Positions 18,364 to 60,962 of a stretch of DNA of 64,000 bases are shown here, piece by piece. Position numbers and translations under genes: made by a program. The notes below the pieces were generated by a model, which saw nothing but the letters and a program-made list of their open reading frames with translations, made no database searches and was not told the origin of the DNA. The DNA lies in the IMG/VR virus record IMGVR_UViG_3300045988_062257; one strand, given 5' to 3'. Each line of letters begins with the position of its first letter. Within the stretch, counting starts at the first letter, position 1. Origin of the DNA: a virus.

Positions 18364-19632
18364 ATGGCATATTTTGGTTTGGTAACTAAGTTGCAGAACT
18401 GCCGTAAGGACGAGAACTCTGATCGTCTGTATCTGGCAGATTGCTTCAATGAGGGCGTTATCGTCGGCCCCGATATGAAGACCGGTGATCTGGTTCTGTA
18501 CCTGCCGACCGATGGTCAGGTAGATCATTGGTTTGGCGATAAGTTTACCTTGTTCCGTAAGAATGAGGATGGTACTGAGCAGGGCGGTTATCTGGAGAAT
18601 AACGGTCATGTGCGGGCTATCAAGCTTCGTGGCAACGAGAGTTCTGGCATCGTCATCTCTCTTGAGCGTGTCTATGAGACTTTCGGCAATCAGCATTGGA
18701 AGAACGGAGATAAGATAAATACTATCAATGGTAAGGAGTTCTGCCGTAAGTATATCCCTAAGCGTAAGACTCCGAGCACCACTCCTAAGACTTCCTACAA
18801 GGGTCGTAAGGCAGAGGGTATTACCTATCCTGAGTTTGCAATGCATACTGACACCGAGCAGCTTGCATACAATCTGGATAAGTTCCGTCCCGGCGATGAG
18901 CTGAATATGACTCTTAAGATGCATGGCACTTCTCAGCGTTCCATGAACACCTTTGCTGAGCTACCCAATGGCTTCTTCCGTCGTCTATTCCATATGAAGA
19001 AGCGTCTGAAGCAGGCTTATGTTCTCGGTACGCGCCGTTGTGTTGTAACTGAGAACTCTCAGGGCTACTACGGCAATGATCTATTCCGTATGTCTCACCA
19101 TGAGGCATTGAAACCCCATCTTGATCCTGGTATGGAGGTCTTTTACGAGGTAGTAGGGTACTACGGTCCCTCTGAGAATGATACCATCATGCCTATCGGC
19201 GATAACTCCAAGCTAAAAGATAAGGCTTTCCAAAAGCTGTTCGGTAAAAAGTCTATCTTCTCCTACGGCTGCAAGCCCGGTGAGTCCCATATGTGGATTT
19301 ATCGCATCACTTCCGAGAATGGTCAGCGTGAGTGGACTCCTGACGAGATTACTGCTTGGTGCGAGAAGCATGGCTTTAATCGTGTCCCGGTGATTGAGAA
19401 CTTCAAGTTCACTACTGCCGAGGACCTGCAGGACCGCATTAACAAGTATTTCGAGGACTTGGTCGATCCTATCGGTAAAACTCATGTTAAAGAGGGCGTT
19501 GTAGTTCGTATCGTCAACCGCCGCGCCTTTACTGCTTTCAAGTCTAAGACTTACGAGTTCAAGGTGCTTGAGGGTATTATCAAAGAGACTGAGACTGCTC
19601 CAGATATGGAGGAGGCACAGGACGAAGTATGA
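18364..19632 (+). CDS. ATP-dependent RNA ligase, Rnl2-like
   Basis: Nucleotidyltransferase motif I KMHGTS (Rnl2 KIHGTN-like), motif IV EGVVVR, motif V FKSK. Confidence 0.5.
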   Translation: MAYFGLVTKLQNCRKDENSDRLYLADCFNEGVIVGPDMKTGDLVLYLPTDGQVDHWFGDKFTLFRKNEDGTEQGGYLENNGHVRAIKLRGNESSGIVISLERVYETFGNQHWKNGDKINTINGKEFCRKYIPKRKTPSTTPKTSYKGRKAEGITYPEFAMHTDTEQLAYNLDKFRPGDELNMTLKMHGTSQRSMNTFAELPNGFFRRLFHMKKRLKQAYVLGTRRCVVTENSQGYYGNDLFRMSHHEALKPHLDPGMEVFYEVVGYYGPSENDTIMPIGDNSKLKDKAFQKLFGKKSIFSYGCKPGESHMWIYRITSENGQREWTPDEITAWCEKHGFNRVPVIENFKFTTAEDLQDRINKYFEDLVDPIGKTHVKEGVVVRIVNRRAFTAFKSKTYEFKVLEGIIKETETAPDMEEAQDEV

Positions 19633-19796: not shown

Positions 19797-20153
19797 ATGC
19801 TTTATTGGGGTATTATCCTTTTTATTTGTATCATCGTTTTTGTTGTTTTATTTAAGGCACTCAATAATAGCTGTTGGTACTGGGGAATGGCAGCATTTGT
19901 TATTGCATTGGCAATGCTTTTAAGTACCTGCAAGTATAGAAGCTTTTTAGCTTCTTTTGAAATTCAACGCACAATTATTACGCAAATGTCACAGTCATAC
20001 CATTTTAACGACAATACACTTATCTATATAGCGGATATGATTGACGCTAATCAAGAGTTAGCGGAAATTCAAGGTAGTAAGAAAGCTTGGGGCGGATGGA
20101 GTATGTACCCCGATAGTGTCATGGATGTCATTCCCATCGGATTAGAAAACTAA
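19797..20153 (+). CDS. Membrane protein
   Basis: Two N-terminal TM helices. Confidence 0.4.
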   Translation: MLYWGIILFICIIVFVVLFKALNNSCWYWGMAAFVIALAMLLSTCKYRSFLASFEIQRTIITQMSQSYHFNDNTLIYIADMIDANQELAEIQGSKKAWGGWSMYPDSVMDVIPIGLEN

Positions 20154-20156
20154 ATG

Positions 20157-20198
20157 CAAGAGACTCTTACCTAGCCAGTAAGAGTCTCTTTATTTTTA
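20157..20198 (+). terminator. Rho-independent terminator (CAAGAGACTCTTAC-ctagcca-GTAAGAGTCTCTT plus T-run)
   Basis: 13-bp stem and TTATTTTTAT. Followed by the promoter motif. Confidence 0.65.
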
Positions 20199-20251
20199 TA
20201 ATAATATATTATATAATATATATAAAGAATGAGGAAAGGAGTTTTCTATAT

Positions 20252-20776
20252 ATGCAGAAAATTCTAATTGTAATTGATATGCAGAATGATTTCGTAACAG
20301 GGCCTCTCGGCTCTAAAGCCGCGCAAGTAGCTGCGAAGAATATTGCTGCGCATATCAATGAATATGACACGGTAATTTTCACCCGCGATACCCATGGCCC
20401 AGATTATCTGGATACATTGGAAGGAAAGTTCCTACCGATTCCGCATTGTATCAAGGATACTGAAGGATGGGAGATTATCCCTGAACTCGTTAATGGAGTT
20501 TCCAAGGTGAAGAATCTCTACGTCGTCGATAAGGATACCTTTGGCACTTTCATTTGGGGAAGTATGTCTGTAAATATGTCAGTAGATGAAGATACTACCA
20601 TTGAAATTTGCGGCGTATGCACCGACATTTGTGTGGTATCCAATGCTCTTATCATGCGGGCTTTTCGTCCTAATCAGAAGATCAAGTGTCACAAAGACTG
20701 GTGCGCTGGTACGAGTGTTGCAGCACATGAAGCAGCTCTTAAAGTTATGGAATCTTGCCAGATTGAAGTTATTTAA
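20252..20776 (+). CDS. Isochorismatase-family hydrolase (nicotinamidase PncA-like)
   Basis: N-terminal ILIVIDMQNDF and catalytic Cys region CGVCTDICV. Confidence 0.55.
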   Translation: MQKILIVIDMQNDFVTGPLGSKAAQVAAKNIAAHINEYDTVIFTRDTHGPDYLDTLEGKFLPIPHCIKDTEGWEIIPELVNGVSKVKNLYVVDKDTFGTFIWGSMSVNMSVDEDTTIEICGVCTDICVVSNALIMRAFRPNQKIKCHKDWCAGTSVAAHEAALKVMESCQIEVI

Positions 20777-20787
20777 GGAGGCTTAAT

Positions 20788-21621
20788 ATGCTATTTGTTC
20801 GCTCTAGAATGGGTTTTGAGGATAAAACCTGGATGCCAGTTAGTCAAGATCGATTTCCAGATGGAACGCTGCACATGACTGCTCCTAAAGATTCCTTATT
20901 TAAGAACTCTAATGTCGATATCTACTGGAAGTATAACAATGATGCAGAATTGTTCTCGCTAATTTGCTTGCGGAAACACTATGCCGATTGTAAAAATGTC
21001 ACACTTTATATGCCCTATTGTCCGCACGCCCGCATGGATAGAGTTAAGGGCACAACCGATGTATTCACTCTCAAGAGTTTTGCAGATGTTATCAACTCTC
21101 TTGATTTCACCAAGGTGGTTATCTATGATGCCCATAGTAATGTAACACCTGCGCTAATTGATAGAGTGGAAAATCGTCCGAATACTATGTTCGTTGAACG
21201 CACTTTACTCGATATCGGAGACGATAATCTTGTCATGTATTATCCCGACGAAGGGGCTATGAAGAGATATTCTGAGAATTGCCAGCGCCCTTATAGCTTT
21301 GGCATGAAGCGCAGAAATTGGGAGACTGGTAAAATTCTCGGTGTAGATATTATCAATAGAGAGATTGTAAAAGACAAGAATATCCTCATTGTTGATGATA
21401 TTTGTTCTAAGGGCGGTACATTCTACCATTCAGCGCAGGCTCTGAAAGATGCGGGCGCCGCAGATATTTATCTCTTCATCACTCATTGCGAAGATTCTAT
21501 TTTCAAAGGCAGCTTACTCGAAAGTGGCTTGATTAAGCACATCTACACCACTGATTCGTTGGGCCATGACATTCTCTTTAACAAACAGATTACGGTTTAC
21601 AACCTGCGAGAAATCATTTAA
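20788..21621 (+). CDS. PRPP-synthetase-like phosphoribosyl pyrophosphokinase (Prs or ADPR-PP synthetase-like)
   Basis: PRPP-binding signature ILIVDDICSKGGT. About 277 aa. Sits next to a NAMPT-family gene. Confidence 0.5.
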   Translation: MLFVRSRMGFEDKTWMPVSQDRFPDGTLHMTAPKDSLFKNSNVDIYWKYNNDAELFSLICLRKHYADCKNVTLYMPYCPHARMDRVKGTTDVFTLKSFADVINSLDFTKVVIYDAHSNVTPALIDRVENRPNTMFVERTLLDIGDDNLVMYYPDEGAMKRYSENCQRPYSFGMKRRNWETGKILGVDIINREIVKDKNILIVDDICSKGGTFYHSAQALKDAGAADIYLFITHCEDSIFKGSLLESGLIKHIYTTDSLGHDILFNKQITVYNLREII

Positions 21622-21630
21622 GGAAAGGAA

Positions 21631-23361
21631 TTGTATACAATGTTTAATCCTCTTTTAATGATTGACTTTTATAAGAGTACCCATCATGAACAGTACCCCG
21701 TTGGACTAACTAAGATGGTTAGCTACTACACTCCTCGTATGAGCCGCCTTAAGGATGTAGACAAGGTAACTTTGTTTGGTCTACAGGCATTTATTAAGGA
21801 GTATCTCATTGAGGGTTTTAACGATAACTTCTTTAATCGTCCAGAAGAGGAAGTTGTCGCAGAGTACGAGCGAGTTCTCAACGCTACTCTCGGTCCAGGT
21901 GCATTTCAGTCTGAGAAAATTAGAGATTTGCATCGACTGGGCTATCTTCCTCTAGAAATCTCTGCTGTCCCTGAAGGCACCAGAACCGCGATCGGCGTCC
22001 CGCAGATCGAGATTACCAACACTCACCCCAACTTCGTTTGGTTGGTGAATACTATTGAGACCCTTCTGTCTGCCACCATGTGGCATACGCAGGTATCCGC
22101 GGAAGTTGGCTATCGGTATCGCCAGATTGTGCAGAAATACCGTGACATGAGTTGCGACGACAATGTTCCTGTAGCTCGACTGCTTGGTGATTTCTCTATG
22201 CGCGGTCAGCAATCCGCGGAATCCGCAATTAAGAGTTCTGCTGGCTGGTGTCTATCTTTCCTGAACACCGCTACTGTACCTGCAATTATGTGGCTTGAGA
22301 AGAACTATAATTGCGACTGCACTAAGGAACCTGTTGCTTACGGCGCAATCTCTACCGAGCATAGTGTTATGTGCTCTAACTACGCGATTGATGGTAATGA
22401 AATTACCCACATCCGCAGACTTCTGACAGAGATTTATCCTCACCACAATTTTTCTATGGTGTCTGATAGTTACGACTATTGGAATCTCGTAGAGAAAATT
22501 CTCCCGCACTTGAAAAATGAAATCATGGCACATGATGGGTGTCTTTCTATTCGTGGCGATAGTGGCGACCCAGTTGAGATTATCGCGGGTAAGGAAATCA
22601 TCTATCTCAATGAGCAGGAGTGGGAGAACCTAAAAGACGATCCAAGTGAGTTCATTGCTGAGTTCTTTGAACGAGACTTAGAGAAAGACACTCAGCAGAT
22701 TTTCTCTTACAATGGAGAGTATGCTCTTGCTGACATTACAGTCGAATGGACTAATGAGCGCGGTGCTTGGACTGATTGCAAATATTGGTACATTGAGGGT
22801 TATAATGTCAAACTGATTGAAAATTATGAGCTTACTTCTGAGGATAAGGGAACTGTCTGGTGTTTGTGGGATATTTTCGGTGGAACTATCAATAGCAAGG
22901 GCTATAAGGTCCTTGATCCTCACATTAAAGCTATCTATGGTGATAGCATTACTCCTCAGCGGTGCACTCGCATTTATCAGCGCCTTGTGAATAATGGATT
23001 TGCCATTAACAATGTTTCTCTTGGCGTTGGCTCTTTCTCCTTTATGTGTCTTGAAGAAGATGGCAGCTTCAATCCTTACACTCGTGATACCTTTGGTATC
23101 GCTGTTAAGGCAACTTACGCGGAAAATGCAAATGGTAAGCCTATTATGATTTACAAGCAGCCCAAGGCTCTCAGTTGGAAGAAGTCTCAGAAAGGCTGCT
23201 GTCGGATAGCTCTTGATGGTCAGAGCTATGAAGATGAACTGACTTGGGCAGATCATCTTGGTGAAGACAATCTACTCCAGCCTGTGTTCCGTGATGGTAG
23301 TATGATTAAGGAGGACAGTCTGCACGATATTCGCGCACGGCTATATAAGGAGGGCTTTTAA
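21631..23361 (+). CDS. Nicotinamide phosphoribosyltransferase family protein (NadV/NAMPT-like)
   Basis: 576 aa. NAMPT/NAPRT-family architecture with conserved GDS and DSYD-like motifs. Confidence 0.55.
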   Translation: MYTMFNPLLMIDFYKSTHHEQYPVGLTKMVSYYTPRMSRLKDVDKVTLFGLQAFIKEYLIEGFNDNFFNRPEEEVVAEYERVLNATLGPGAFQSEKIRDLHRLGYLPLEISAVPEGTRTAIGVPQIEITNTHPNFVWLVNTIETLLSATMWHTQVSAEVGYRYRQIVQKYRDMSCDDNVPVARLLGDFSMRGQQSAESAIKSSAGWCLSFLNTATVPAIMWLEKNYNCDCTKEPVAYGAISTEHSVMCSNYAIDGNEITHIRRLLTEIYPHHNFSMVSDSYDYWNLVEKILPHLKNEIMAHDGCLSIRGDSGDPVEIIAGKEIIYLNEQEWENLKDDPSEFIAEFFERDLEKDTQQIFSYNGEYALADITVEWTNERGAWTDCKYWYIEGYNVKLIENYELTSEDKGTVWCLWDIFGGTINSKGYKVLDPHIKAIYGDSITPQRCTRIYQRLVNNGFAINNVSLGVGSFSFMCLEEDGSFNPYTRDTFGIAVKATYAENANGKPIMIYKQPKALSWKKSQKGCCRIALDGQSYEDELTWADHLGEDNLLQPVFRDGSMIKEDSLHDIRARLYKEGF

Positions 23362-27111: not shown

Positions 27112-27948
27112 TTGAAAATGCCTATTCATGATGAACTTGGAACTCGGATGAAAGAGTTCTATGAAAGCGTTCCTAAGACTAAGTTAATGCGCCGTACCCC
27201 AGTTGCAATTCGCATTGACGGTAAAGCTTTCCACACCTTTACCCGTGGTTTCAGTAAGCCTTTTGACGATGTGCTGATTAGTGCGATGCAGGATACCATG
27301 AAATATCTCTGTGAAAACATTCAAGGGTGCGTATTAGGGTATACCCAAAGTGATGAAATCACTCTTATCCTTGTTGATTACAAGCGGCTCAACAGCTCTG
27401 CTTGGTTTGATTATGAAGTGCAGAAGATGTGTTCTATTGCCGCTTCTATGGCGACGATGGCTTTCAACAAAGCATTTAATGAAGGAGTTCGGCATAGGAA
27501 TCTAGATTATTATGCCGCTCATGCGACTATGGATAACCCTTACCCACAAGATGATTTGGGCCAGACTTATGCAGTAAAAGCACAAATGGGCGCCATGTTT
27601 GATGCTCGTTGTTTCAATATCCCCAAGGAAGAGGTCACCAACCTTGTCTATTGGCGTCAGCTAGATGCAACCCGCAATTCTATTCAGATGGTAGGTCAGG
27701 CTAATTTCTCTCACAAAGAACTCCAAGGTAAATCTTGTGAGAAAATCAAAGAGATGTTAATCACGGAGAAAGGGATTTCTTGGGAAGACTTTCATCCTAT
27801 GTATAAGCATGGCTCTTGTTGCATCAAGGTTACAACTGAGACCGATGGTGTAACTCGCTCTAGCTGGGAAATTGATAAAAATATTCCGCTATTTGTCGGA
27901 GAGGGACGTGAGTATATCGAATCTCTAATCCAATGTCAGGAGGAATAA
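27112..27948 (+). CDS. Thg1-like protein (tRNA-His guanylyltransferase family, 3'-5' polymerase)
   Basis: N-terminal RIDGKAFHTFTRG signature. About 278 aa. Confidence 0.5.
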   Translation: MKMPIHDELGTRMKEFYESVPKTKLMRRTPVAIRIDGKAFHTFTRGFSKPFDDVLISAMQDTMKYLCENIQGCVLGYTQSDEITLILVDYKRLNSSAWFDYEVQKMCSIAASMATMAFNKAFNEGVRHRNLDYYAAHATMDNPYPQDDLGQTYAVKAQMGAMFDARCFNIPKEEVTNLVYWRQLDATRNSIQMVGQANFSHKELQGKSCEKIKEMLITEKGISWEDFHPMYKHGSCCIKVTTETDGVTRSSWEIDKNIPLFVGEGREYIESLIQCQEE

Positions 27949-29801: not shown

Positions 29802-30506
29802 ATGTATTTCATTTATAAAATCGAAAATCTGATTAACCATAAAATCTATATTGGTTCCAGTGACTAGTCACGAGGATTTACAACAAGGTGGTATGAACAT
29901 TAGCAAAATGCTCGTCTCGAATCTCGCGCAGGATATGAATATCCATTATATCGAGCCATAAGAAAATATGGTATAGAGAATTTTGATTTTCAAATCTTAA
30001 TAAAAGATATTCAAACTCCAGAAGAAAGATATAAATTAGAGCATGATGCAATCATTGAATATAATAGCTTAACCTCTTAGCATGGATATAATCAAACTCT
30101 AAACACAGAATATCCGTTTGATGATCCAGAAGTACGAGCTAAATTGGCAACACCCATTTGTGCCATTTCAGAAACAAGTGGAGAAAAGAAATTTTTTCCT
30201 ACAATAACTGCCGCAGCTCATGAGTTAGGATCTGATAGAGCTAGTATTAGAAAATGCGCATCCGGTAGTACCAGATATAAAACAGTAAAGGGATTTATAT
30301 TTAGGGAATATAATCCAGAAACACTGGAAATCATTCCAAATAACATCCCCATAGAAGAAGCCAGCAAGTTAATTGAAATCAATGGAGAATTTCACAATTT
30401 CAAAGATTGGTGTTCCATTTATAATATTTCAAAAAATTCGGTATACAAGCGTATGAAAAATGGAATGTCGAGAATTGAAGCCATTACAACACCCAAAAGG
30501 AAGTGA
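29802..30506 (+). CDS. GIY-YIG homing endonuclease with NUMOD-like C-terminal DNA-binding domain; three in-frame TAG
   Basis: YFIYKIENLINHKIYIGSSD*SRGFTTRWYEH*QNAR (GIY...YIG...R..H) and C-terminal AAAHELGSDRASIRKC (NUMOD1-like). The ORF table lists only the C-terminal part (30144-30506), in frame with ATG 29802. Confidence 0.6.
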
Positions 30507-30512
30507 CTTATA

Positions 30513-31199
30513 TTGAAAATTTGGCTATCATCAGATTACCATTATAATCACGATAAGGAGTTCATCTGGAAAGCCCGTGGTTTTGAAAGCGTTGAAGAGA
30601 TGAATGAAACTATCGTAAAGAAGAATAATGAGTGTGTGGCACCGGAAGATACACTTATTATCTGCGGCGACCTCATGCTTGGTGGGGCTGATAAGCTCGA
30701 AGAAGGACTTGCTTTGCTCAATCGCATGAATGGTCTTAAGCTCGTGGTTGGTGGTAACCATGATACCCCTAATCGTAGAGAAGCCTATCTTAAGGCTGGT
30801 ATTCCTGTATTTGATGCTTATGCTTTTACCTACCGCAAGTATCATTTCTATGCTTCTCATTATCCTACTTTGACCGGCAACCTTGAGAAAGAGTCCCTCA
30901 AGCAGGTGACTTGTAATCTTTTTGGTCATACCCATCAGACCTCCAACTTCTACAATGAAATTCCATTTATGTACCATGTAGGAGTTGACTCTCATGAATG
31001 TTATCCTGTTCTTCTTGATGATGTTATCAAGGAAATGAATGAGAAGGTTGAGGAGTGTAAGGCGCAGCTGTAGATTGAAGAGTCAAGCCCTATCATAAGA
31101 TGTAATAAATGTATATATACCTATCCTAATTGTGGCTGTATCCCTGGGTTTTGTAAATCTTATAAGCGAGATCCTCCCGATGGAGGCTACTATGGATAA
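30513..31199 (+). CDS. Calcineurin-like metallophosphoesterase; TAG at 31071-31073 followed in frame by a 42-codon Cys-rich extension
   Basis: Motifs SDYHYNHD, GDLMLGG, GNHD, GHTH. After the TAG the frame stays open to TAA ~31197, encoding CNKCIYTYPNCGCIPGFC, a zinc-ribbon-like tail. Confidence 0.45.
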
Positions 31200-31255: not shown

Positions 31256-32752
31256 ATGGAAATTTTGATGACTATTCTTCCTTTTGTTCCTGCGGTGATT
31301 ATTGCTATTGCTCTTATCGCCCTCTTGGCTTCTGGTTATGTAAAGGCTCCACCTGATGTTGCCTATATCATTTCTGGTCTGCACAAGAAACCTCGTATTT
31401 TGGTCGGTAAGGCTGGCATCAAGATTCCCTTCTTGGAGCGACTGGATAAGCTGGCACTAGGAGCCATTCAGATTGATGTTAAGACTGGCTCTGCCGTGCC
31501 GACTGCTGAATACATCAATGTGCGAGTCGATTCTACCGTTTCTGTACGCGTGGGTCAGAGCGAAGAGATGATTGCTCTTGCTGCTCAGAACTTCCTAAAT
31601 GTCTCTCGCGATCAGATCGCACAGAAGATTAACGATCTTTTGGAAGGCAATATTCGTGAGATTGTGGGCCAGATGAAGCTAACTGAAATGGTCGGCGACC
31701 GCAAGGCCTTCTCCGAAAAGGTACAGGAAAATGCTGTACCTGACCTGGCTCGTTTTGGTCTGGAGTTGGTTTCTTTCAATGTCCAGAACTTCTCTGATGA
31801 TAATGATGTTATCACCAACCTCGGTATTGATAACGTCGAGCAGATCCGCAAGGACGCCGCAATTGCTAAGTCTAACGCCCAGCGCGAGATCGCGGTGGCC
31901 GAGGCTGAAAACGCTAAGGCTTCTAATGATGCCCGCGTGAAGGCTGAGGAAGAGATTGCCAAGCGTAATAACAGTCTGGCTATTCAGAAGGCTCAGTTGA
32001 AGCAGGAGGCGGATACCAAGCAGGCTCAGGCTAACGCTGCTATGGAAATCGAATCTGAGAACCAGCGTAAACTGCGCGATGTGGCCGCGGCAGATGCTGA
32101 CATTGCTCGTCAGGAAAAGGAGATTGACCTGAAGGAACGCGAAGTCGCCATTAAAGAGCGTGCTTTGGAGGCTGAGGTTAAGAAGACTGCGGAAGCCAAG
32201 AAGTATGCGGCTCAGCAGGAAGCTGATGCTAAGCTATACGCTACTCAGAAGCAGTCTGAAGCAGACCTGTATGAGCGTCAGAAAACCGCTGAAGCCGAGC
32301 GTTTTGAAGCAGAGCAGAGAGCTGAAGCCCAGCGTGCTACAGCTGAGGCTGTTCGTGTTCAGGGCGAAGCAGAAGCTGCGGCTACTAAGGCTCGTGGTGA
32401 AGCTGAGGCTGCCGCGATTCAGGCTAAGGCTGAGGCAGAAGCTGAAGGCCTTATGAAGAAGGCAGAAGCCATGAAGCAGTATGGCGAAGCTGCCAAGATG
32501 GATATGCAGATGGAAGCCCTCAAGCTGTACTTCCAGCAGTTGCCTGCTATTGCTCAGGCTACCGGTCAGGCGTACACCAATGTTGACAAGATTGTAATGT
32601 TTGGTGATGACACCAGCAAACTGTCTGGCAACATTATCAAGAATGTCGCTCAGGTTTCTGAGGGACTGAGTGAATCCCTCGGTATTGATGTGAAAACCTT
32701 GCTCACCGGTTTTCTCGGTGGCAAGTTGGCAGACTCCTCTAATAAGGAGTAA
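31256..32752 (+). CDS. SPFH/band-7 (flotillin-like) membrane protein with long A/E/K-rich coiled coil
   Basis: N-terminal TM helix, SPFH core, then about 200 aa EA-rich repeats (AEAEAAA...). Confidence 0.55.
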   Translation: MEILMTILPFVPAVIIAIALIALLASGYVKAPPDVAYIISGLHKKPRILVGKAGIKIPFLERLDKLALGAIQIDVKTGSAVPTAEYINVRVDSTVSVRVGQSEEMIALAAQNFLNVSRDQIAQKINDLLEGNIREIVGQMKLTEMVGDRKAFSEKVQENAVPDLARFGLELVSFNVQNFSDDNDVITNLGIDNVEQIRKDAAIAKSNAQREIAVAEAENAKASNDARVKAEEEIAKRNNSLAIQKAQLKQEADTKQAQANAAMEIESENQRKLRDVAAADADIARQEKEIDLKEREVAIKERALEAEVKKTAEAKKYAAQQEADAKLYATQKQSEADLYERQKTAEAERFEAEQRAEAQRATAEAVRVQGEAEAAATKARGEAEAAAIQAKAEAEAEGLMKKAEAMKQYGEAAKMDMQMEALKLYFQQLPAIAQATGQAYTNVDKIVMFGDDTSKLSGNIIKNVAQVSEGLSESLGIDVKTLLTGFLGGKLADSSNKE

Positions 32753-34958: not shown

Positions 34959-34982
34959 ATACCCTAATTGGAGGTGAGGTCA

Positions 34983-36389
34983 TTGGCGGATAATGCTCAA
35001 GTTATTTGGGATTATCTCAAATCAAAAGGATTAAGTAACTGCGGCGCCGCAGGTCTAATGGGGAATCTATTCGCGGAAAGTGGACTTATTCCAACTAACT
35101 TATAGAACTCATATGAGAGCAAGTTAGGAATGAACGATGCCTCGTATACTGCGGCTGTTGATAATGGCTCCTATACCAATTTCATGCATGATTCTGCAGG
35201 ATATGGTTTAGCTCAATGGACATATTGGAGCCGCAAGCAAGGTCTGTTTTAGCTGTGCAAAAGTCGAGGAAAGTCTATTGGTGACTTGAACACTCAACTA
35301 GATTTTTTATATCAGGAACTAACTACAAGTTATTCCTAGCTATTAAAAATCTTGAAGACTACCTCATCTGTTGAAGAAGCATCTAATTTAGTGGTCACTC
35401 AATTTGAAAGACCGGCAGACCAAAGCTTTGATACACTAAAACAACGTGCTTTGTATAGTCAACGTTACTTCAATACTTATTCAACGCAAAAGGAGGAAAT
35501 GGCTAAGATGAAATATTCAAACGCCAATCAACCATTGGTTTGCATGATGACTAATAGTACCTGTTATAAGCAAACCCGTAAGATGGATATTAAAGGTGTA
35601 CTCTGGCATAGTACAGGCGCAAATAATAAAACTATTAAACGCTATGTCCAACCATCTGAGAGTGATAAAAATTATCAATCTCTGATTGCTAAAATTGGTA
35701 AAAATACCAGTAGAACCGATTGGAATCATAGCTCGTAGCAAGCTGGTGTAAACGCTTGGATTGGTACTCTTGCTGATGGAAGCGTAGCCGCGGTACAAAC
35801 GTTGCCTTGGAATTATAGACCTTGGGGCTGCGGCTCAGGTCCTAAAGGTAGTTGTAATACCGGATGGATTCAATTTGAAATTTGCGAAGACAATCTAAGT
35901 GATCCTAACTACTTCGCTAAAGTCTACAAAGAAGCTTGTGAATTGACAGCTTATTTATGTAAAACATATAATATCAATCCAAATGGTTTTGTAAATGTAA
36001 ATGGCGTAACCGTCCCAACTATTCTCTGCCATCAAGATAGTTATCAGCTGGGCCTCGGCAGTAATCATGCCGATGTATACCACTGGTTCAAGAAATATGG
36101 CAAAGATATGGCAACTGTCCGCAAAGATGTTGCTGCTTTAATGCAGTCTAAAGTTATCGAGGAGGATGATGAAGACATGACTCAAGAGAAATTCAACGAA
36201 ATGATGAATGTATATTTAAGCCAGCTCGCTGCTCAACCAGTTACTTGGGAACAAGATGCGATGACTTGGGCACAAGCTAATGGCTTAATCAATGGCAATG
36301 AAAAAGGCCAATTAATGCCAAAGCGTTTTATGACTCGCGGCGAATTTGCAGCCGTTCTAAAACGTTATGCTGAAAAGAGTGGTCAATAA
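34983..36389 (+). CDS. Endolysin: phage tail-lysozyme-like N-terminal domain plus amidase-like C-terminal domain; four in-frame TAG
   Basis: RBS GGAGGTGAGG then TTG 34983. GLMGNLFAESGLIPTNL*NSYE...GYGLAQWTYWSRKQGLF*LC matches the phage lysozyme-like family motif. Two further TAGs join ORFs 35352-35738 and 35802-36389 (same frame, offset 450 nt). Confidence 0.6.
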
Positions 36390-36712
36390 TGACTCGTCAA
36401 ACAAGAGGAAAAAGAAGACACAATTAGAAGAGAGAATTTTCTAAACAACTTATTTGCGATATTCGCTCTTTATTGTGGATTGTAACTATCTCTGGTATTG
36501 CTCTTGCTTTCTATTGCGTACATCTTGGCTATTTAGGCACTCTTCCATGGATTAGTGCATTAGTAGGATTACCCTGGTCTGCGCATGGTATTGTTTGTTC
36601 TTTTTACTTAAATATGAGTAAATCTGATCACCGCAAGGGTGGAATTACCTATGATTTAGCTATGTGTGAACAACAATAGCAACAAATAATCGAGGATGAA
36701 GCAACCATCTAA
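36389..36712 (+). CDS. Holin-like two-TM membrane protein; two in-frame TAG
   Basis: ATG overlaps the lysin stop (TAATG). Basic N-terminus MTRQTRGKRRHN*KRE then two TM helices. ORF table shows only 36473-36679. Reading through the terminal TAG extends it 11 codons to TAA. Confidence 0.4.
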
Positions 36713-41727: not shown

Positions 41728-42876
41728 ATGAGTTTTGATAAAGATAAGATACATGAGTTGTATCCTGAAGCAGAAAATTTAATGATTGAGCCAATGCTCA
41801 TTTGGAAGTTACCAGCGGGAAAAGAATCTATGCTCTCTGAAGTATGCTCTAATGGGGAATATTTTCTTGAAGAGAAGATTGACGGAGCATTTTATCAGTT
41901 TGTAAAAACTGAAAATCATTCTTATCTTTTTGGTCGCACAGTAAGTAAACTATCTGGTATCCTTACAGAAAAAAGTGACAATGTACCTCACTTAAAAGAG
42001 GCGTTGAACTGCCTTCCCGCAGGAACAATTCTCATTGGAGAAATTTATGTTCCAGGTGGTACATCGAAAGATACTGTAAGTATTATGGGATGTTTACCTG
42101 CTCTTGCTATCAAGAGACAAGAGAAAGAACCAATTCATTATTATGTGCATGATATTATTGCATATGATACAGTCAATCTTATTGACTCACCCGCAGATTT
42201 GCGCTATAAAATTCTTGCGGCAATCTGGAAGAAACATGATCTTAACCAATACAGTTTCTTGAGACTTGCTACTCGTGTTGACGAAGATATGGAAGCTGAA
42301 ATCTCCCGTATCTTGAAATCTGGTGGCGAAGGTGCAGTTCTAAAGAAGAAAGACTATCCATATACCCCTGGTAAAAGACCCGCCTGGTCTACTATTAAAG
42401 TTAAACAGATGGATTCTATTGATTTAATTTGTACTGGTTTTTGCGATGCTACAAAGGAGTATACCGGTAAGGAATTGGCCACTTGGGAATATTGGGAAGA
42501 GCGCGGTGAGCGAAGTCAAGATGGTGAATATACTTGGCTATTAAGTGAAGGTCAATATTATGAAGATTATTTTCATAATCCTCATATTTACAGACCCGTA
42601 ACTAAGCCTTATTTTCTTGGCTGGAAAACCGCAATTAGGATTGGTGCGTACAATGATAATGGGGAACTTGTTGACTTAGGTACAGTTAGTTCTGGATTAA
42701 CTGACGATAATAAGAGAGAGATGACTGAGAATCCCGATTTGTGGCTTGGTCATGTTATTGCTCTTGATTGTATGCAAATTGATAAGAAAGAGCATACTTT
42801 GCGACATCCTGTCTTCAAGTGTAAAAGAGACGATAAGGATGCAAAAGATTGCGTAATATCAGAAATTTTTTGTTGA
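41728..42876 (+). CDS. ATP-dependent polynucleotide ligase (KxDG nucleotidyltransferase; DNA ligase-like)
   Basis: Motif I EEKIDGAF plus downstream ligase-like motifs (EGAVLKK). Confidence 0.5.
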   Translation: MSFDKDKIHELYPEAENLMIEPMLIWKLPAGKESMLSEVCSNGEYFLEEKIDGAFYQFVKTENHSYLFGRTVSKLSGILTEKSDNVPHLKEALNCLPAGTILIGEIYVPGGTSKDTVSIMGCLPALAIKRQEKEPIHYYVHDIIAYDTVNLIDSPADLRYKILAAIWKKHDLNQYSFLRLATRVDEDMEAEISRILKSGGEGAVLKKKDYPYTPGKRPAWSTIKVKQMDSIDLICTGFCDATKEYTGKELATWEYWEERGERSQDGEYTWLLSEGQYYEDYFHNPHIYRPVTKPYFLGWKTAIRIGAYNDNGELVDLGTVSSGLTDDNKREMTENPDLWLGHVIALDCMQIDKKEHTLRHPVFKCKRDDKDAKDCVISEIFC

Positions 42877-42943
42877 CTTAAAAAATATTTTCTGATATAA
42901 TATATATGTAATTCAGAAAAGCAATAGTAAAAGGACAGATTGT

Positions 42944-43168: not shown

Positions 43169-43432
43169 ATGGCTATGAAGGAAAATACTCGTAAGGTTTT
43201 TGATTATCTAAAGGACAATACTGACAAGGATTTAACTGCCGCTGATGTGGCTGAAGCTCTTGGTCTTGAGAAGCGCCAGGTTGATGGTATTTTTACCTCT
43301 GCTCTGCAGCGTAAGGACTATGGTACGCGTGAGCCCGCTGAGGTTGAGCTTGCCGATGGCTCCCATCAGAAAGTTAAGTATCTTCGCTTGACTGACAAGG
43401 GCTTGGCTTTCGATCCTGATGCTCAGGAGTAA
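43169..43432 (+). CDS. Hypothetical protein
   Basis: RBS AGAGGAG. Confidence 0.4.
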   Translation: MAMKENTRKVFDYLKDNTDKDLTAADVAEALGLEKRQVDGIFTSALQRKDYGTREPAEVELADGSHQKVKYLRLTDKGLAFDPDAQE

Positions 43433-43439
43433 TAAATTA

Positions 43440-43478
43440 GATCGGTAAGAGGATATACCTCTTACCGATTTCTTTTAC
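43440..43478 (+). terminator. Rho-independent terminator (AATCGGTAAGAGG-atata-CCTCTTACCGATT plus T-rich)
   Basis: 13-bp stem and TCTTTTAC. Confidence 0.6.
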
Positions 43479-43480
43479 TT

Positions 43481-44398
43481 ATGATTTATTATATATTATC
43501 AGGCTTGGTTATTCTTGCGTTAATAGGATATGTTTTATATCTCCGCAATAATCGGCTTTAGGTAGTATTGATAAATAAAGAAAGACAAGAAGAAAATAAA
43601 CGTATTGAACAAGATATTGCATTGAAATAGAGAGAATTAGCAAAAGTAAAAGAAGATATTGTATCACATAATGAAATTGTCAATTCTTTAAACGATACTG
43701 CGAATAAGTTGCGGGAAAGCGCTGAATAGCGAGCAGAAGAGAGCGCTAAAGCTCAATTTGAAAAGAAAAGTAAAGAGCTTGATGAAACATATCAAGCTAA
43801 AGAAAAATATCATTTAGCAGAACTTCAATAGATAACTAATCAAATTTCACATTAGCAAGATAAACTCCATGAATTGGAAGCTAAATAGTTATCTTATATC
43901 TAGGCTCAATAGCGCCAAGAAGCGATTGCCGCAGATTAGGATTACTACCGTCTTGCTATTGATGAATTTAGTTTGAATGATATTACTTTATTACGTGATT
44001 TGCAAATTCACTTTGTGAAAAAGGAAATCATTGATAAAGTAATATGGGAGACCTATTATCGTCCTGCGTATGATATTCTTATGACGCATCTATTTGCCAC
44101 TAATAAAGGTAAAGTATGCGGTATCTATAAGATTACCGATCTAATAACTGGTTAGGCTTATATTGGTTAGTCTGTTGATATTAAAGAGCGTTTTAGACAG
44201 CACATTAAAACCTCTTTAGCATACGGACCTGCGACTAATAAGTTATATTAGGCGATGCAAAAATCTGGTCAATATAATTTTATATTTGAGATTTTGGAAG
44301 AAGTGCCTAGAGATTAGTTAAATGAACGAGAGACTTATTGGATTGAGTTCTATAAGACTAAAGAACTAGGTATGAATGGAACTCGTGGAGGTTCATAA
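43481..44398 (+). CDS. TM helix plus Gln-rich coiled coil plus GIY-YIG nuclease domain; 16 in-frame TAG
   Basis: With TAG read as Gln: N-terminal TM (IYYILSGLVILALIGYVLYL), coiled coil AELQQITNQISHQQDKLHELEAKQ, C-terminal GIYKITDLITGQAYIGQSVDIKERFRQH...YWIEFYKTKELGMN. The ORF table captures only 43973-44155. Confidence 0.5.
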
Positions 44399-44709
44399 TG
44401 TTTAAAGTGATTGCGAGTCGTGGCGCAGGCAAGACAACCAGCTTAATGCGCTATGCAAATGATTTAGCAGATAAATATCCTGATAAGATGGTGCTCTTTG
44501 TTACTCAACATCCTCAACTGATGGTTAAAAAGTTCTTAGAGTTAACAAAAAAGCGTAATCTACCGCAGAATTTAGGATTTATTAGCTATGGATATTTTCT
44601 AACAAAAGCGAGAGGTATGAAATGTATTGCTGTTATTGATGAACTAGATTGCTGGCTCGATCAATTCAACATTGTAGGATACACAAATACTGTGGGAGAC
44701 GATAACTGA
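44398..44709 (+). CDS. Small P-loop protein
   Basis: Walker A-like RGAGKTTS. Confidence 0.35.
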   Translation: MFKVIASRGAGKTTSLMRYANDLADKYPDKMVLFVTQHPQLMVKKFLELTKKRNLPQNLGFISYGYFLTKARGMKCIAVIDELDCWLDQFNIVGYTNTVGDDN

Positions 44710-51980: not shown

Positions 51981-53690
51981 ATGGATTATTAGCTGATTAA
52001 GCCTATTCATGACGGTTACTCCGCTATTGAACAGGTGCTGACAAATAGAGGGATTAAATTTGAAGATATTGATCATTATCTTAATGTATCAGAATCAGAT
52101 AATTTATCACCCCTTTTGCTCAAAAATATTGAGAGTGCAGCTAAGATGATTTTTAATCAACTTAGTAAAGATAGTTTTCATATTCATGTGCAAGTGGATA
52201 GCGACTGCGATGGATATACTTCAGCAGCTTTATTATTGAATTATATCCATGCTATATTCCCATCTGCTATATCGCATATTTCATATAGTTTTCACGATGG
52301 TAAGATTCATGGTATTAACCCTGAGTTGATTCCACCAGAGACAACATTAGTCATTGCTCCAGATTCAAGCTCTAATGACTATGATATTCACAAGGCTCTC
52401 CATGATAAGGGTATTGAAGTTCTTGTATTGGATCACCACTAGGCTGAGAGAATTTCAGAATATGCTTGTATCGTGAATAATCAACTTTGTGATTATCCTA
52501 CTAAATCGCTTTCTGGTGTTGGTGTAGTTTATAAGCTATGTCAATTTATTGATTCTCTGCTTCCCGCAGATCAACAGAAAGCGGATCAATTCTTGGATAT
52601 AGTAGCTATTGGCTTGGTTGGAGATATGATGGATTTAAGAGATTTTGAAACACACTATCTAGTTCAGACTGGATTAAATCAAATTCAAAATCCATTTATC
52701 AAAGGTATGGCAGAAAAGAATCATTACCAGTTAGGCGATCACCCTACTCCTATCGGGGTTGCTTTCTACATTGTACCACTTATTAACTCAATTACAAGAG
52801 TTGGAACAATGGCTGAAAAGATTTTATTATTTGAGTCTATGCTTAACTGGAAAGCCTTTGATTTAGTTCCTTCAACTAAGAGAGGATGCTCTGGTCAGCA
52901 AGAGACAAGATTGGAACAAAGCTTGCGGACTTGCACTAATGTCAAGAATCGGCAAACGAGAAATCAGGATGCCGCGGTTGAACAGGTTAAAACAATCATC
53001 GAGGATAATAAACTTCTCGATCATAAGATTTTGTTAATTAAATTAGAACACCCTTCTTTTGATAGAGGTATCACTGGTTTAATTGCTAACAAACTTATGG
53101 CAGAATACCAGCGGCCTGTGGCATTGTTAGTGGAAGTAGAAGAAGATGGGAAAATCGCTTGGAGCGGTTCGGCACGTGGATATGAGAAATCTAAGCTAAA
53201 TGATTTCAGAGGCTTTTGTCGAGATAGCGGTTTAGTTTATCTTGCTGAAGGCCATCCTAATGCATTTGGTTTCGGTATCTTGGACGAGAATTTTGATGCC
53301 TTTCTCGAATATGCCGATAATGCACTCAAGGATATAGAATTTTCACCAAGTTATAAAGTGGATTTTATTCATTCCATAAACAACTTTAATCCTAAAGAAA
53401 TTCTTGAACTAGGTAACATGAAAAATCTTTGGGGTCAAAATGTTGATGAACCACTTATCGCGGTGGAAAATGTTGCAGTAACAAAAGACATGATTACACT
53501 CATGGCAAGAGATAGGAACCCCACGTTGAAGATCCAATTACCCAACGGAGTTACTTGCATCAAGTTTAAATCAAGCGAAGAGGAGCTGGATAGTTTGTTC
53601 AGCGAAAACGGTTGCGTGACTATTAATCTTGTGGGTAAGGCCGAAGTAAATAAATACTTCAATAGTGTAACACCACAACTTATTATCTAG
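51981..53690 (+). CDS. DHH-family phosphoesterase (RecJ-like exonuclease); two in-frame TAG (codon 4 and after the DHH motif)
   Basis: Perfect SD AAGGAGGT 7 nt before ATG 51981, then MDY*LIKP. DHH motifs DCDGYTS, VLDHH*, and DHHA1-like GHP. ORFs 52035-52442 and 52473-53690 are in the same frame (offset 438 nt). Confidence 0.6.
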
Positions 53691-53766: not shown

Positions 53767-54492
53767 ATGAGTCGTTTTATTAAAGTTATCACAAGTTTAA
53801 TCATTATATTATCTTTATGCGGATGTGGCTATGGCCTAGCGGTCACTGCTCAAGCTTATTCCGTGCCGTATAACGAAACTGTTAGTTATACTCTTGATGA
53901 TATGGATACATTGATTGAGCTTATTGCGGAACAAATCTCGAATATGAACGCCGCACATCAAATGGCTGAAGCTGCTAGATAGCTAGGCTATAGTGAAGAC
54001 CATGACGTCATTGTATTAGCAAAACAAGAACACGCTGATGCAAATGCTTTGAGAATGAAATATCAAAGCGTATATGACCAACTCATGGAACATTGGCATC
54101 AAAAGGAAGAAGAGTACCCAACAGCTACTTATATATGGACCTACTTCAAAGATCTGGGCTACAGTAACCAAGTTTGCGCTGGCATTCTTGGTAATATAAT
54201 GGCTGAAACTGGAGGTAACACATTAGACATTCAAGCCACGATTTCTGGTAACGGATATTATGGTATATGTCAATGGAATAAAGCCTACTCAAATGTATGG
54301 GGAGCCTCGTTAGAAGAGCAATGCGACTATCTGCGAGATACTATTGAGTACGAGTTCGATACATTCGGTTATGTTTATAAGAGAAACTTTGATTACAATA
54401 GTTTCTTAGATTTAACCGACATTAAAAGCGCCGCTCTAGCATTTGCTAAATGCTATGAGAGATGCGGTTCTGGGAGCTATTATACGCGATAG
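53767..54492 (+). CDS. Lipoprotein with phage lysozyme-like (tail-lysozyme family) domain; one in-frame TAG
   Basis: Signal peptide plus lipobox LSLCGC. After TAG 53980-53982 the frame continues (54049 in frame, offset 282 nt) into ICAGILGNIMAETGG...GYYGICQWN, paralogous to the endolysin N-domain. Confidence 0.45.
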
Positions 54493-54540
54493 CAAAATGC
54501 TATTGCTGCATATAATTACTTCATAAGTTAAAATAAAGAA

Positions 54541-60530: not shown

Positions 60531-60962
60531 ATGTATTGTATATATTTACACCGTAATTTAATAAATGGCAAGGTGTATATCGGATAGACTAAGTTTGGCG
60601 ATAATCCAAATAAACGGTGGTAGGGTGGAGAAGGTTATAAAAGATAGATAAATTTTTATGAAGATATTTCTAAATATGGATGGGATAATTTTGACCATAT
60701 TATATTAGCTTCAAATCTAACTTTAGAAAGAGCTAATGCTTTAGAAATAAAATTCATAGAAGATTATCAGTCTACCGATCCTCAATATGGCTATAATATC
60801 ATGTCTGGTGGAGGAAATGCGCTATCCAATAATTCTAACCTCCTTTCAACTTTATACTTTAATGATGAAAAGGGAATCCTAAGAAGCAAGAAAGTAAAAA
60901 GTGTTTTAGAAGCTGAAAAGATTAGATATAATGAAAAATATCAAAGATATTTTGGAAAATAA
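60531..60962 (+). CDS. GIY-YIG homing endonuclease (free-standing, between gmk-like and nrdD); three in-frame TAG
   Basis: RBS GGGAGG. YCIYLHRNLINGKVYIG*TKFGDNPNKRW*GGEGYKR*INFYE: the canonical GIY-YIG motif is YIGQT..R...H. Confidence 0.6.

Follow-up and report, generated by a model that had tools for sequence, protein, structure and literature searches.

A conserved phage gene with 13 in-frame TAG codons encodes a predicted membrane-anchored GIY-YIG endonuclease of SNIPE-like layout

INTRODUCTION

SNIPE (PD-lambda-1) is a recently characterised bacterial defence nuclease that tells self from nonself by membrane location. This Escherichia coli protein comprises an N-out transmembrane (TM) helix, an elongated helical part with a DUF4041 domain, and a C-terminal GIY-YIG domain (Saxton et al., bioRxiv 10.1101/2025.11.03.685801; Vassallo et al. 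2022, PMC9519451). DUF4041 binds DNA and the tape measure protein, and the GIY-YIG domain is required for function. Phage DNA is cut during injection and membrane-localised host DNA is spared. When the TM helix is missing, SNIPE is highly toxic; replicating lambda DNA is unaffected after prophage induction (bioRxiv 10.1101/2025.11.03.685801). Here we analyse a phage gene with a similar layout. It is located at positions 43481 to 44398 of a 64,000-nucleotide (nt) stretch of viral DNA (IMG/VR record IMGVR_UViG_3300045988_062257), which we call the window, and is referred to below as the 43481 gene. Its reading frame contains 13 TAG codons.

TAG codons inside phage genes have a precedent. In recoded phages, the standard code is kept in replication genes, and structural and lysis genes are recoded. 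For a group I intron (homing) endonuclease, it was proposed that in-frame recoded stop codons hold back the enzyme until late (Borges et al., bioRxiv 10.1101/2021.08.26.457843). Phage phAss-1 was reported as a code-15 phage with 41 recoded open reading frames (ORFs) (PMC10607447). The 43481 gene is a strongly recoded gene located in a replication module.

RESULTS

The 43481 gene is one reading frame in which TAG encodes Gln

Over its 918 bases, the 43481 frame has no internal TAA or TGA; the five alternative frames contain 11 to 40. The same was found for all recoded orthologues. Of its 26 Gln codons, 13 are TAG (codons 27, 50, 83, 117, 125, 136, 141, 144, 153, 225, 230, 257, and 279), 12 are CAA, and one is CAG. 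An earlier note on this DNA, made from the letters alone, had given 16 TAGs and had described a coiled coil whose Gln residues are almost all encoded by TAG. The recount yielded 13, and in amino acids (aa) 22 to 153 TAG specifies 9 of the 18 Gln residues. The architecture proposed in the note, an N-terminal TM helix, then a coiled coil (here seen as a long helix), and GIY-YIG at the C terminus, was borne out by hydrophobicity, Pfam (PF01541), and an AlphaFold2 (AF2) model. Under the standard code, the gene falls into 14 pieces. Full-length homologues of the protein were found at 53 to 98% identity, and in 0-TAG family members a single uninterrupted ORF specifies a TM-coil-GIY-YIG protein of the same kind. 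Because such standard-code homologues carry the same architecture in one ORF, the possibility that the stretch consists of two unrelated ORFs, which the note had named as fatal to its proposal, is excluded.

TAG is a sense codon for Gln in this phage. The Q of the canonical YIGQS motif (GIY...YIG-Q-S) is encoded by TAG in the 43481 gene. At conserved Gln columns across 25 lineages, the TAG/CAA/CAG counts were 9/10/5 (column 230), 6/11/1 (column 240), and 9/4/1 (column 136). In addition, no gene in the window requires TAG as a terminator.

A tRNA(CUA) was sought inside the 64-kb window, and none is present. The tRNA-like gene at 4166-4239 (Rfam tRNA, 36 bits) was considered as a suppressor candidate and rejected: its anticodon loop is 8 nt long (GUUAAAAG) and lacks CUA, and ARAGORN assigned to it the 4-base anticodon 'taaa'. 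An amber-suppressor tRNA(CUA) is located approximately 3.9 kb upstream of the window start (L092:4182-4272; ENA ERZ28568211 scaffold_71). It was read on a 148,364-bp metagenomic contig that holds an exact copy of one window protein. This 91-nt tRNA combines a long variable arm (CCCUCUGAAGGAG) with a U1-U72 mismatch and G73, an unusual set of features in a tRNA whose codon is read as Gln. Among the suppressor tRNAs of phAss-1, it has a homologue of the same type (an 88-nt Sup tRNA). Thus, the suppressor activity postulated in the note has a counterpart in the phage itself, encoded shortly before the window start.

The phage tRNA array also harbours a transfer-messenger RNA (tmRNA; L092:6955-7298) with the tag peptide DNNYFDSHMAA*. 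Near it lies a 50-aa ORF (L092:6404-6556) with a faint Pfam match to ArfA (ribosome rescue). Both are noteworthy given the stop codon reassignment in this phage.

A predicted membrane anchor, a helical stalk, and a C-terminal GIY-YIG domain

The AF2 model was computed with 48 homologues in the alignment and with a query (P0001) that is 98% identical to the window protein. It is confident over the entire chain (mean predicted local distance difference test score, 86.8) and shows a single helix at residues 2-151, helices at 162-175 and 182-204, and a GIY-YIG domain at 214-292. The domain boundaries are listed in Table 1. A hydrophobic helix starts at approximately residue 1 in 102 of 105 family members, and it was near-universal in 80 IMG/VR loci (30-95% identity). 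K and R together average 0.08 ahead of this helix and 3.2 over the 15 residues that follow. With this distribution and the positive-inside rule, the nuclease is predicted to be cytoplasmic.

When the stalk and the middle domain were compared to Pfam, PHROGs, and PADLOC, only nonspecific coiled-coil or spanin-like matches (E ~0.005) were obtained, and T5orf172 was not among them. The middle part is conserved from about aa 129 to 212, with the invariant columns KQLAYIQAQQRQE...DYYRL...LLRELQ..F.KKE.IDKLIWE.YYKPAYD.

Pfam PF01541 (GIY-YIG) matched aa 213-293 with 33 bits (cutoff, 22.6), and the protein has the alpha/beta fold of this family. In 48 homologues of close to moderate similarity, residues G214, I215, Y216, Y227, I228, G229, R237, H241, E284, and N299 are invariant. 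In 58 representatives with 25-48% identity, ten columns are invariant, including G214, Y216, Y227, G229, R237, H241, and E284; the most distant family members show variation at I215, I228, and N299. This conservation suggests that the endonuclease is catalytically intact. A DNA-binding module of the kind found in homing endonuclease genes (HEGs), such as NUMOD, IENR1, zinc finger, or helix-turn-helix (HTH), was detected neither in Pfam scans of the window protein and 58 relatives nor in the model.

The gene belongs to a large, fixed phage family

The first search of a protein collection yielded 427 homologues, nearly all of them full length with 300-310 aa, on contigs of 100-150 kb. An exhaustive profile search yielded 748 clusters (50% identity) at E <= 1e-30, typically of 300-360 aa. 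No names were attached to the 120 best homologues or returned by three cluster look-ups. Among cultured phages, tblastn searches with two queries, the window protein and a family member of 0 TAG, detected the full architecture only in phAss-1; other matches were limited to the GIY-YIG domain. When 20 kb were compared by megablast to 50,697 phage records, the only match was one of 51 bp in thymidylate synthase. A match in Enterococcus VRE9_3 was rejected as a family member, being an ordinary HEG with an N-terminal GIY-YIG domain.

In every relative examined, down to 30% identity and including standard-code phages, the 43481 gene is found at the same locus. The gene order ligase - p66 - p87 - nuclease is kept even in a 59%-identical relative with ThyX in place of ThyA and dihydrofolate reductase (DHFR). 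A true HEG behaves differently: at the corresponding junction, 20 of 20 close relatives lack HEG 60531 and have a gap of approximately 69 nt instead. Because of the constant locus and the lack of an HEG-type DNA-binding domain, we regard the 43481 gene, on comparative grounds, as a vertically inherited, fixed family and not as a homing endonuclease, the class to which it had been assigned before.

The HEG at 60531-60962 is inserted between a 194-aa gene and nrdD only in the genome of the window. It already contains three TAGs, which suggests that it came from another TAG-recoded phage.

The family members sit on phage-sized contigs binned with metagenome-assembled genomes (MAGs) of Clostridia, and the window endolysin has an SLH domain. 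The Pol III alpha protein is 39-40% identical to those of SPbeta and Enterococcus EF1-like phages. The window phage is an SPbeta/EF1-like gut phage of approximately 148 kb.

In the genome of phAss-1, the homologue (OQ749652.1, 63005-63985 minus; L006:7410-8414) contains a TM helix, a coiled coil with 9 TAGs, and a GIY-YIG domain. The GenBank record cuts it into two 'hypothetical proteins', with a gap left. Two Sup-CTA tRNA genes are located approximately 300 nt downstream of it.

TAG marks late-class genes and is not specific for nucleases

The window contains 37 TAGs in well-supported genes and up to 46 if doubtful small ORFs are included. The five nuclease genes account for 1 + 2 + 3 + 13 + 3 = 22 of them. 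The earlier note had estimated about 25 of roughly 40; the skew holds and the counts do not. As it had stated, large core genes are devoid of TAG: there is none in the genes for Pol III alpha, both topoisomerase subunits, DnaB, and the NAMPT-like protein. We then expressed TAG as a share of Gln codons. This share was 0.50 in the 43481 gene (13/26; Fisher test versus core genes, p = 1e-14), 0.31 in the four ordinary HEGs (9/29; p = 6e-9), 0.15 in the lysis genes (8/53; p = 9e-6), and 0.011 in 35 core genes (5/442). In 11 pooled tail and structural genes, we counted 61 TAGs in 5485 codons, corresponding to a share of 0.29. This is similar to the HEGs (p = 0.83) and marginally lower than in the 43481 gene (p = 0.044). 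For the tail, RuvC, and recombinase genes, a 94-98% identical contig was used in place of the genome of the window itself, and the counts cover the ~148-kb genome except for approximately 46 kb with head and packaging genes.

Thus, the TAG skew is real and TAG density differs between gene classes, as predicted. The proposed concentration in nucleases holds as an excess over core genes and fails as a specific property: the TAGs of the lysis genes, RecJ, NrdD, and the metallophosphatase had been overlooked, and the tail genes of the related contig have a share close to that of the HEGs. The idea that TAG decoding gates selfish or toxic nucleases fares likewise. Its premises, TAG as Gln and a suppressor tRNA, stand, and its restriction to such nucleases is contradicted by the tail and lysis genes. 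Since tail genes match the TAG share of the HEGs and lysis genes carry TAGs, the skew is not nuclease-specific; it is the published pattern of late-gene recoding, in another clade. The TAG usage of the 43481 gene is at least that of tail genes, and the gene therefore behaves as a late-class gene within an otherwise TAG-free replication module.

Similar observations were made in other genomes. In recoded lineages, the 43481-family gene is the TAG-densest gene within +-10 kb at most loci (25-75 TAGs per 1000 codons versus approximately 1-5 in neighbours). In the complete genome of phAss-1, the giant tail proteins are TAG-densest (110 TAGs in 3150 codons), and two genes of the replication module stand out in TAG, one of which is the homologue of the 43481 gene.

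Past the end of the window, on the related contig IMGVR_UViG_3300045988_053065, the gene for a RuvC-like Holliday-junction resolvase (L108:13042-13521) contains 9 TAGs in 159 aa and is thus denser than the 43481 gene, and a serine recombinase gene (L108:17543-18157, minus strand) contains 6 TAGs in 204 aa. Therefore, DNA-cutting enzymes beyond the window are heavily recoded, too. The opposite codon extreme to the nuclease gene is the gene for an SPFH/flotillin-like membrane-scaffold protein (31256-32752, 498 aa), in which 33 of 33 Gln codons are CAG.

TAG positions turn over rapidly, and TAG shares may be close to mutational expectation

The TAG load across the family ranges from 0 to 25 (highest counts, 23-25), and many distant members with the same architecture have 0. 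In the alignment of 25 lineages, 134 columns contain TAG in at least one lineage, 76 of them in a single lineage only, and most are in the stalk region. Swaps between CAA and TAG were detected even between 95%-identical sequences.

We analysed separately the lineages with at most 6 TAGs. A TAG was present within 25 residues past the membrane helix in 13 of 17 sequences, compared to 5.7 expected. With obvious clades collapsed, this corresponds to approximately 8 of 11 independent lineages, a count made without phylogenetic control. The enrichment is suggestive of a selected 'gate' TAG just past the membrane helix.

As a null model, the expected TAG share was calculated for each gene class from two biases of its own, T/C at first positions of Leu codons and A/G at third positions of codons for Lys and Glu. 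The model is crude and the counts are small. For the 43481 gene, 0.58-0.80 was expected and 0.50 observed; for the HEGs, 0.20-0.36 and 0.31; for the tail genes of the null-model pool, 0.38-0.52 and 0.28; and for large core genes, 0.41-0.44 and 0.00. The strong signal may thus be purifying selection against TAG in core or early genes and not selection for TAG in nucleases. TAG-rich genes are near mutational equilibrium, and therefore positive selection for TAG is not required. The high absolute TAG number of the 43481 gene is explained by the Gln-rich protein (8.5%). The gene has a GC content of 0.32 (0.25 at third codon positions), shows no codon adaptation, and uses CAA far more often than CAG, as do the four true HEGs.

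The gene appears insulated and poorly initiated

A terminator-like hairpin precedes the 43481 gene (Table 1). A comparable hairpin with a T-run 8-12 nt before the ATG was found in most of the 23 orthologue lineages that were folded (18 on inspection), irrespective of whether they are recoded or use the standard code. It is conserved as a structure, since stem sequences are unrelated between lineages. No Shine-Dalgarno (SD) sequence is present between the hairpin and the 43481 ATG: the pairing energy with the anti-SD was +0.3 kcal/mol, and the median of 64 genes in the window was -8.2. Most other weak SD sites in the window are miscalled starts. Judged by these signals, the gene looks transcriptionally insulated and poorly initiated, in addition to its TAG load.

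Genomic neighbourhood and other features of the window

The window has a GC content of 40%, is part of a phage genome, and has every credible gene on the plus strand. It contains a tRNA array, genes for NAD salvage and tRNA repair, lysis genes, and genes for topoisomerase subunits, ligase, ThyA/DHFR, DnaB, RecJ, Pol III alpha, and NrdDG (selected features in Table 1).

A p87 match was detected in approximately 60 of 76 loci (36-98% identity), and nearly all of these genes end 37-134 nt upstream of the nuclease gene. The protein has 2760 homologues, one of which is called 'putative transcriptional regulator', and a weak Cas9_a Pfam match; the PHROGs search gave nothing for p87 and p66. It is more conserved than the nuclease (up to 98% identical), and the hairpin is always located between the two genes. 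On the downstream side, p103 was rejected as an obligatory partner of the nuclease, being conserved only where the nuclease is at least ~56% identical. In one lineage (L018, L019), the nuclease and p103 are 58-64% identical to those of the window, and the flanking ligase and p87 are 89-93% identical. Judging from these identities, the nuclease-p103 pair may be exchanged as a cassette or may be a fast-evolving one.

The second lysozyme gene (53767-54531) lies between recJ and a helicase gene, distant from the endolysin/holin pair. Within 18364-19632, 20087-23361, and 27112-27948, we found genes for RNA-ligase-like, Thg1-like tRNA-His guanylyltransferase, isochorismatase-domain (nicotinamidase-like), PRPP-synthetase-like, and NAMPT-like proteins. 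The RNA-ligase-like and Thg1-like genes suggest tRNA repair. These tRNA-repair and NAD-salvage genes are TAG-free once overextended starts are discounted.

Table 1. Coordinates of the 43481 gene, its parts, nearby signals, and TAG-containing or neighbouring genes of the window
Feature	Position	Strand	Remarks
TM-coiled-coil-GIY-YIG gene (43481 gene)	43481..44398	+	305 sense codons, then TAA; 13 in-frame TAG = Gln; based on frame statistics, Pfam, homologues, AF2 model
N-terminal TM helix, aa 1-21	43481..43543	+	predicted N-out/C-in; hydrophobicity kept in orthologues
Long helical stalk/coiled coil, aa 22-152 (~130 residues)	43544..43936	+	single helix in AF2 model; sequence variable between lineages
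Small helical middle domain, aa 153-212	43937..44116	+	conserved; no Pfam match
GIY-YIG catalytic domain, aa 213-305, I-TevI type	44117..44395	+	4 of 8 Gln = TAG, including Q of YIGQS
Terminator-like hairpin	43439..43471	+	14-bp GC-rich stem, then T-rich run; ends 10 nt before ATG; from scan
Sigma-70-like promoter, near-consensus	42873..42901	+	TTGACT-17-TATAAT, extended TG; ahead of 66-aa and 87-aa genes; consensus match only
66-aa gene	starts 42944	+	1 TAG
p87, 87-aa protein	43169..43432	+	TAG-free; immediate upstream neighbour of nuclease gene across most of family
p103, 103-aa P-loop-like protein	44398..44709	+	ATG overlaps nuclease stop (TAATG); strong SD
HNH endonuclease	2477..3004	+	1 TAG
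His-Me finger/HNH-like endonuclease	3323..3733	+	2 TAG; weak Pfam match
Gene of unassigned type	at 5939		1 TAG
Free-standing canonical GIY-YIG homing endonuclease	29802..30506	+	N-terminal GIY-YIG and NUMOD-like DNA-binding domain; 3 TAG
Metallophosphatase	at 30513		1 TAG
Endolysin (lysozyme2 + amidase_2 + SLH)	starts 34968, within lysis genes 34968..36712	+	4 TAG
Holin-like membrane protein	starts 36389, within lysis genes 34968..36712	+	2 TAG
RecJ	at 51981		3 TAG
Second Phage_lysozyme2 protein	53767..54531	+	signal or lipoprotein-like N-terminus (LSLCGCG); 2 TAG
GIY-YIG homing endonuclease, N-terminal catalytic domain	60531..60962	+	3 TAG; sporadic insertion
NrdD	at 60982		1 TAG

DISCUSSION

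We lean toward the view that the 43481 gene encodes a conserved membrane-anchored GIY-YIG endonuclease, that it is a TAG-gated late-class gene in a TAG-free replication module, and that its product acts in a SNIPE-like manner against injected DNA; taken together, this is somewhat better than an even prospect. The anchor and the helical stalk would hold the nuclease at the cytoplasmic face of the membrane. Expression would be under three brakes, namely the upstream terminator hairpin, the missing SD sequence, and the 13 TAGs, the first of which is right past the membrane helix. Without suppression, translation ends at codon 27 and yields the membrane helix alone. At a suppression efficiency s per codon, the full-length yield is s^13; for s values of 0.5, 0.9, and 0.99, this corresponds to ~1e-4, 0.25, and 0.88, respectively. 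With 13 TAGs, there is therefore no full-length protein until suppression is efficient, and the TAG-free core genes are translatable in the standard code of the host. The 43481 protein is probably made only after the phage's switch of genetic code, and it would appear once suppression is efficient, alongside tail and lysis proteins and the resolvase. We infer expression timing (from codon content only), membrane localisation, nuclease activity, and target DNA. By analogy to SNIPE, the tether would keep the nuclease off the phage's own replicating DNA and let it cut DNA at the membrane, and the most plausible target would be DNA injected by competing phages.

Several points weigh against this reading. 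Superinfection exclusion is usually an early function, and the TAG content points to late synthesis. A late codon signature fits exclusion less well, so that a late role in host DNA degradation or clean-up stays a rival. DUF4041 was detected neither in the window protein (E <= 0.1) nor among the 25 most-hit Pfam families of 58 family members (E <= 0.01), and the PADLOC PD-Lambda-1 model matched neither the window protein (E <= 0.1) nor its closest homologue. The hairpin is a consensus-type terminator prediction only, and the downstream ThyA and DHFR genes need transcription; a promoter-like site within the gene (44031-44059) is a pattern match only. Finally, the TAG content may be neutral (0.58-0.80 expected versus 0.50 observed), in which case gating is perhaps a by-product and was not selected.

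This last point can be developed into an explanation in which TAG drifts to mutational equilibrium in weakly expressed or late genes, is purged only from early or efficiently translated ones, and has no regulatory purpose. We consider this possible, though on the unlikely side. It accounts for the TAG shares of the 43481 gene, the HEGs, and the tail genes, which are all near expectation, for the deficit in core genes, and for the fast turnover of TAG positions in a gene of low GC3 (GC content at third codon positions) and no codon adaptation. It would leave the mechanistic consequence unchanged, since the protein could still not be made before suppression. Furthermore, the excess of TAGs soon after the membrane helix in low-TAG sequences hints at a gate codon, and the TAG share of the 43481 gene is marginally above that of tail genes. 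The expectation model behind this explanation is also crude and built on small counts. A clean-up nuclease, which would degrade host or unpackaged DNA near the membrane like T4 endonuclease II (EndoII) or lysis-associated DNases, seems distinctly less likely. The late-class codon signature of the gene resembles that of lysis and tail genes, and the TM helix and coiled coil are weakly similar to spanin and ATP synthase b, proteins of a kind that Borges et al. saw among strongly recoded lysis-cassette genes. However, these spanin and ATP synthase b matches are not significant (E 0.005-0.25), the gene is in the replication module and outside the lysis cassette (34968-36712), and a tether would restrict access to the nucleoid; SNIPE leaves membrane-localised host DNA uncut.

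This analysis began from the suggestion of a selfish homing endonuclease that bears an odd membrane anchor, with TAGs selected in homing or toxic nucleases as a hold until the suppressor is available. The GIY-YIG domain is indeed nearest to homing endonucleases of the I-TevI type, the gene shares low GC and the CAA preference with the four true HEGs, and only one small gene (p103) separates it from thymidylate synthase, a classic HEG neighbourhood. The same gating was proposed by Borges et al. for an intron endonuclease, and the resolvase and recombinase genes outside the window are TAG-rich. Against this stand the constant locus down to 30% identity, which differs from the sporadic HEG 60531, the catalytic domain at the extreme C terminus with no NUMOD, IENR1, zinc finger, or HTH, the membrane anchor conserved in nearly all members, and tail genes with the TAG share of HEGs. 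We judge this explanation very improbable. Practically negligible is an artefact, either a pseudogene or two unrelated ORFs without cotranslation, one for a small membrane peptide and one for a nuclease. The 14 pieces of the standard-code frame and the two proteins in the GenBank annotation of phAss-1 would fit it, but a frame of 305 codons free of TAA and TGA, here and in all recoded orthologues, the single ORF of the 0-TAG homologues, the invariant catalytic residues, and a model that is confident throughout do not.

What, then, is gained? The codon skew itself adds little, as it repeats the published late-gene rule in SPbeta/EF1-like gut phages that cobin with Clostridia. Gating by TAG is plausible, already published, not nuclease-specific, and maybe a by-product of neutral drift in late genes. 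A simple null model can be offered for it, in which late genes have TAG close to mutational equilibrium and early genes are cleared of it. The new part is the family, a large and conserved group of unannotated phage nucleases with the SNIPE layout, carried by gut phages with genomes of roughly 100-150 kb that cobin with Clostridia. If the phage version acts like SNIPE, phages would turn its spatial strategy against competitors. A bolder proposal, which we put forward as speculation and consider rather unlikely in its full form, is a widespread undescribed family of SNIPE-like tethered nucleases directed against DNA entering the infected cell, with an output locked to the code switch by the 'gate' TAG and further TAGs. 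With such a lock, the nuclease could not be expressed in any cell lacking the phage suppressor tRNA. The range of 0 to 25 TAGs offers a natural experiment on code switching as an expression lock for a dangerous enzyme. In practical terms, annotation with the standard code fragments such genes, as happened in the phAss-1 GenBank record.

Among known systems, the late genes of code-15 phages (Borges et al.; phAss-1) have in common with the window phage the use of TAG as Gln, a suppressor tRNA, TAG-free replication machinery, and TAG in structural and lysis genes. The difference here is a strongly recoded gene within the replication module, of a family that is absent by name from both papers. Homing endonucleases of the I-TevI type, such as those at 29802 and 60531, share with the 43481 protein the catalytic sequence, the fold, and all catalytic residues, and their genes share AT-rich, CAA-biased, TAG-containing codon usage; the 43481 gene differs by its C-terminal catalytic domain, the lack of a DNA-binding module, the anchor and stalk, and its fixed, syntenic position. 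The PADLOC model of Uzume (UzuA) matched the GIY-YIG domain in 47 of 58 family members (best E, 1.6e-10). Its alignment covers only positions 182-276 of 278, which is the GIY-YIG part (E 8e-8), and this domain is C-terminal in the UzuA model, too. T4 EndoII (DenA) is a soluble, early enzyme that targets cytosine-containing host DNA and has neither a membrane anchor nor a stalk. In the literature on phage proteins with TM helix, coiled coil, and GIY-YIG domain and on the UzuA architecture, we found nothing specific beyond the SNIPE papers.

SNIPE differs from the 43481 protein in size (~500 versus ~305 aa) and in genomic context, since it is encoded in a bacterial defence island and the 43481 gene in a TAG-recoded phage genome with lytic modules. 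Furthermore, the nuclease domain of the 43481 family is nearest to the I-TevI and UzuA type, and its activity and target are putative. Because DUF4041 and a PD-Lambda-1 model match are lacking, we do not file the family as a member of SNIPE; the relationship is architectural and possibly convergent, with a protein that may work like SNIPE. Common to both are the single N-out TM helix, the elongated helical region, and the C-terminal GIY-YIG domain, as well as a variable N-terminal part next to a conserved nuclease domain. We also count as a likeness the logic of tethering, by which resident DNA would not be cleaved.

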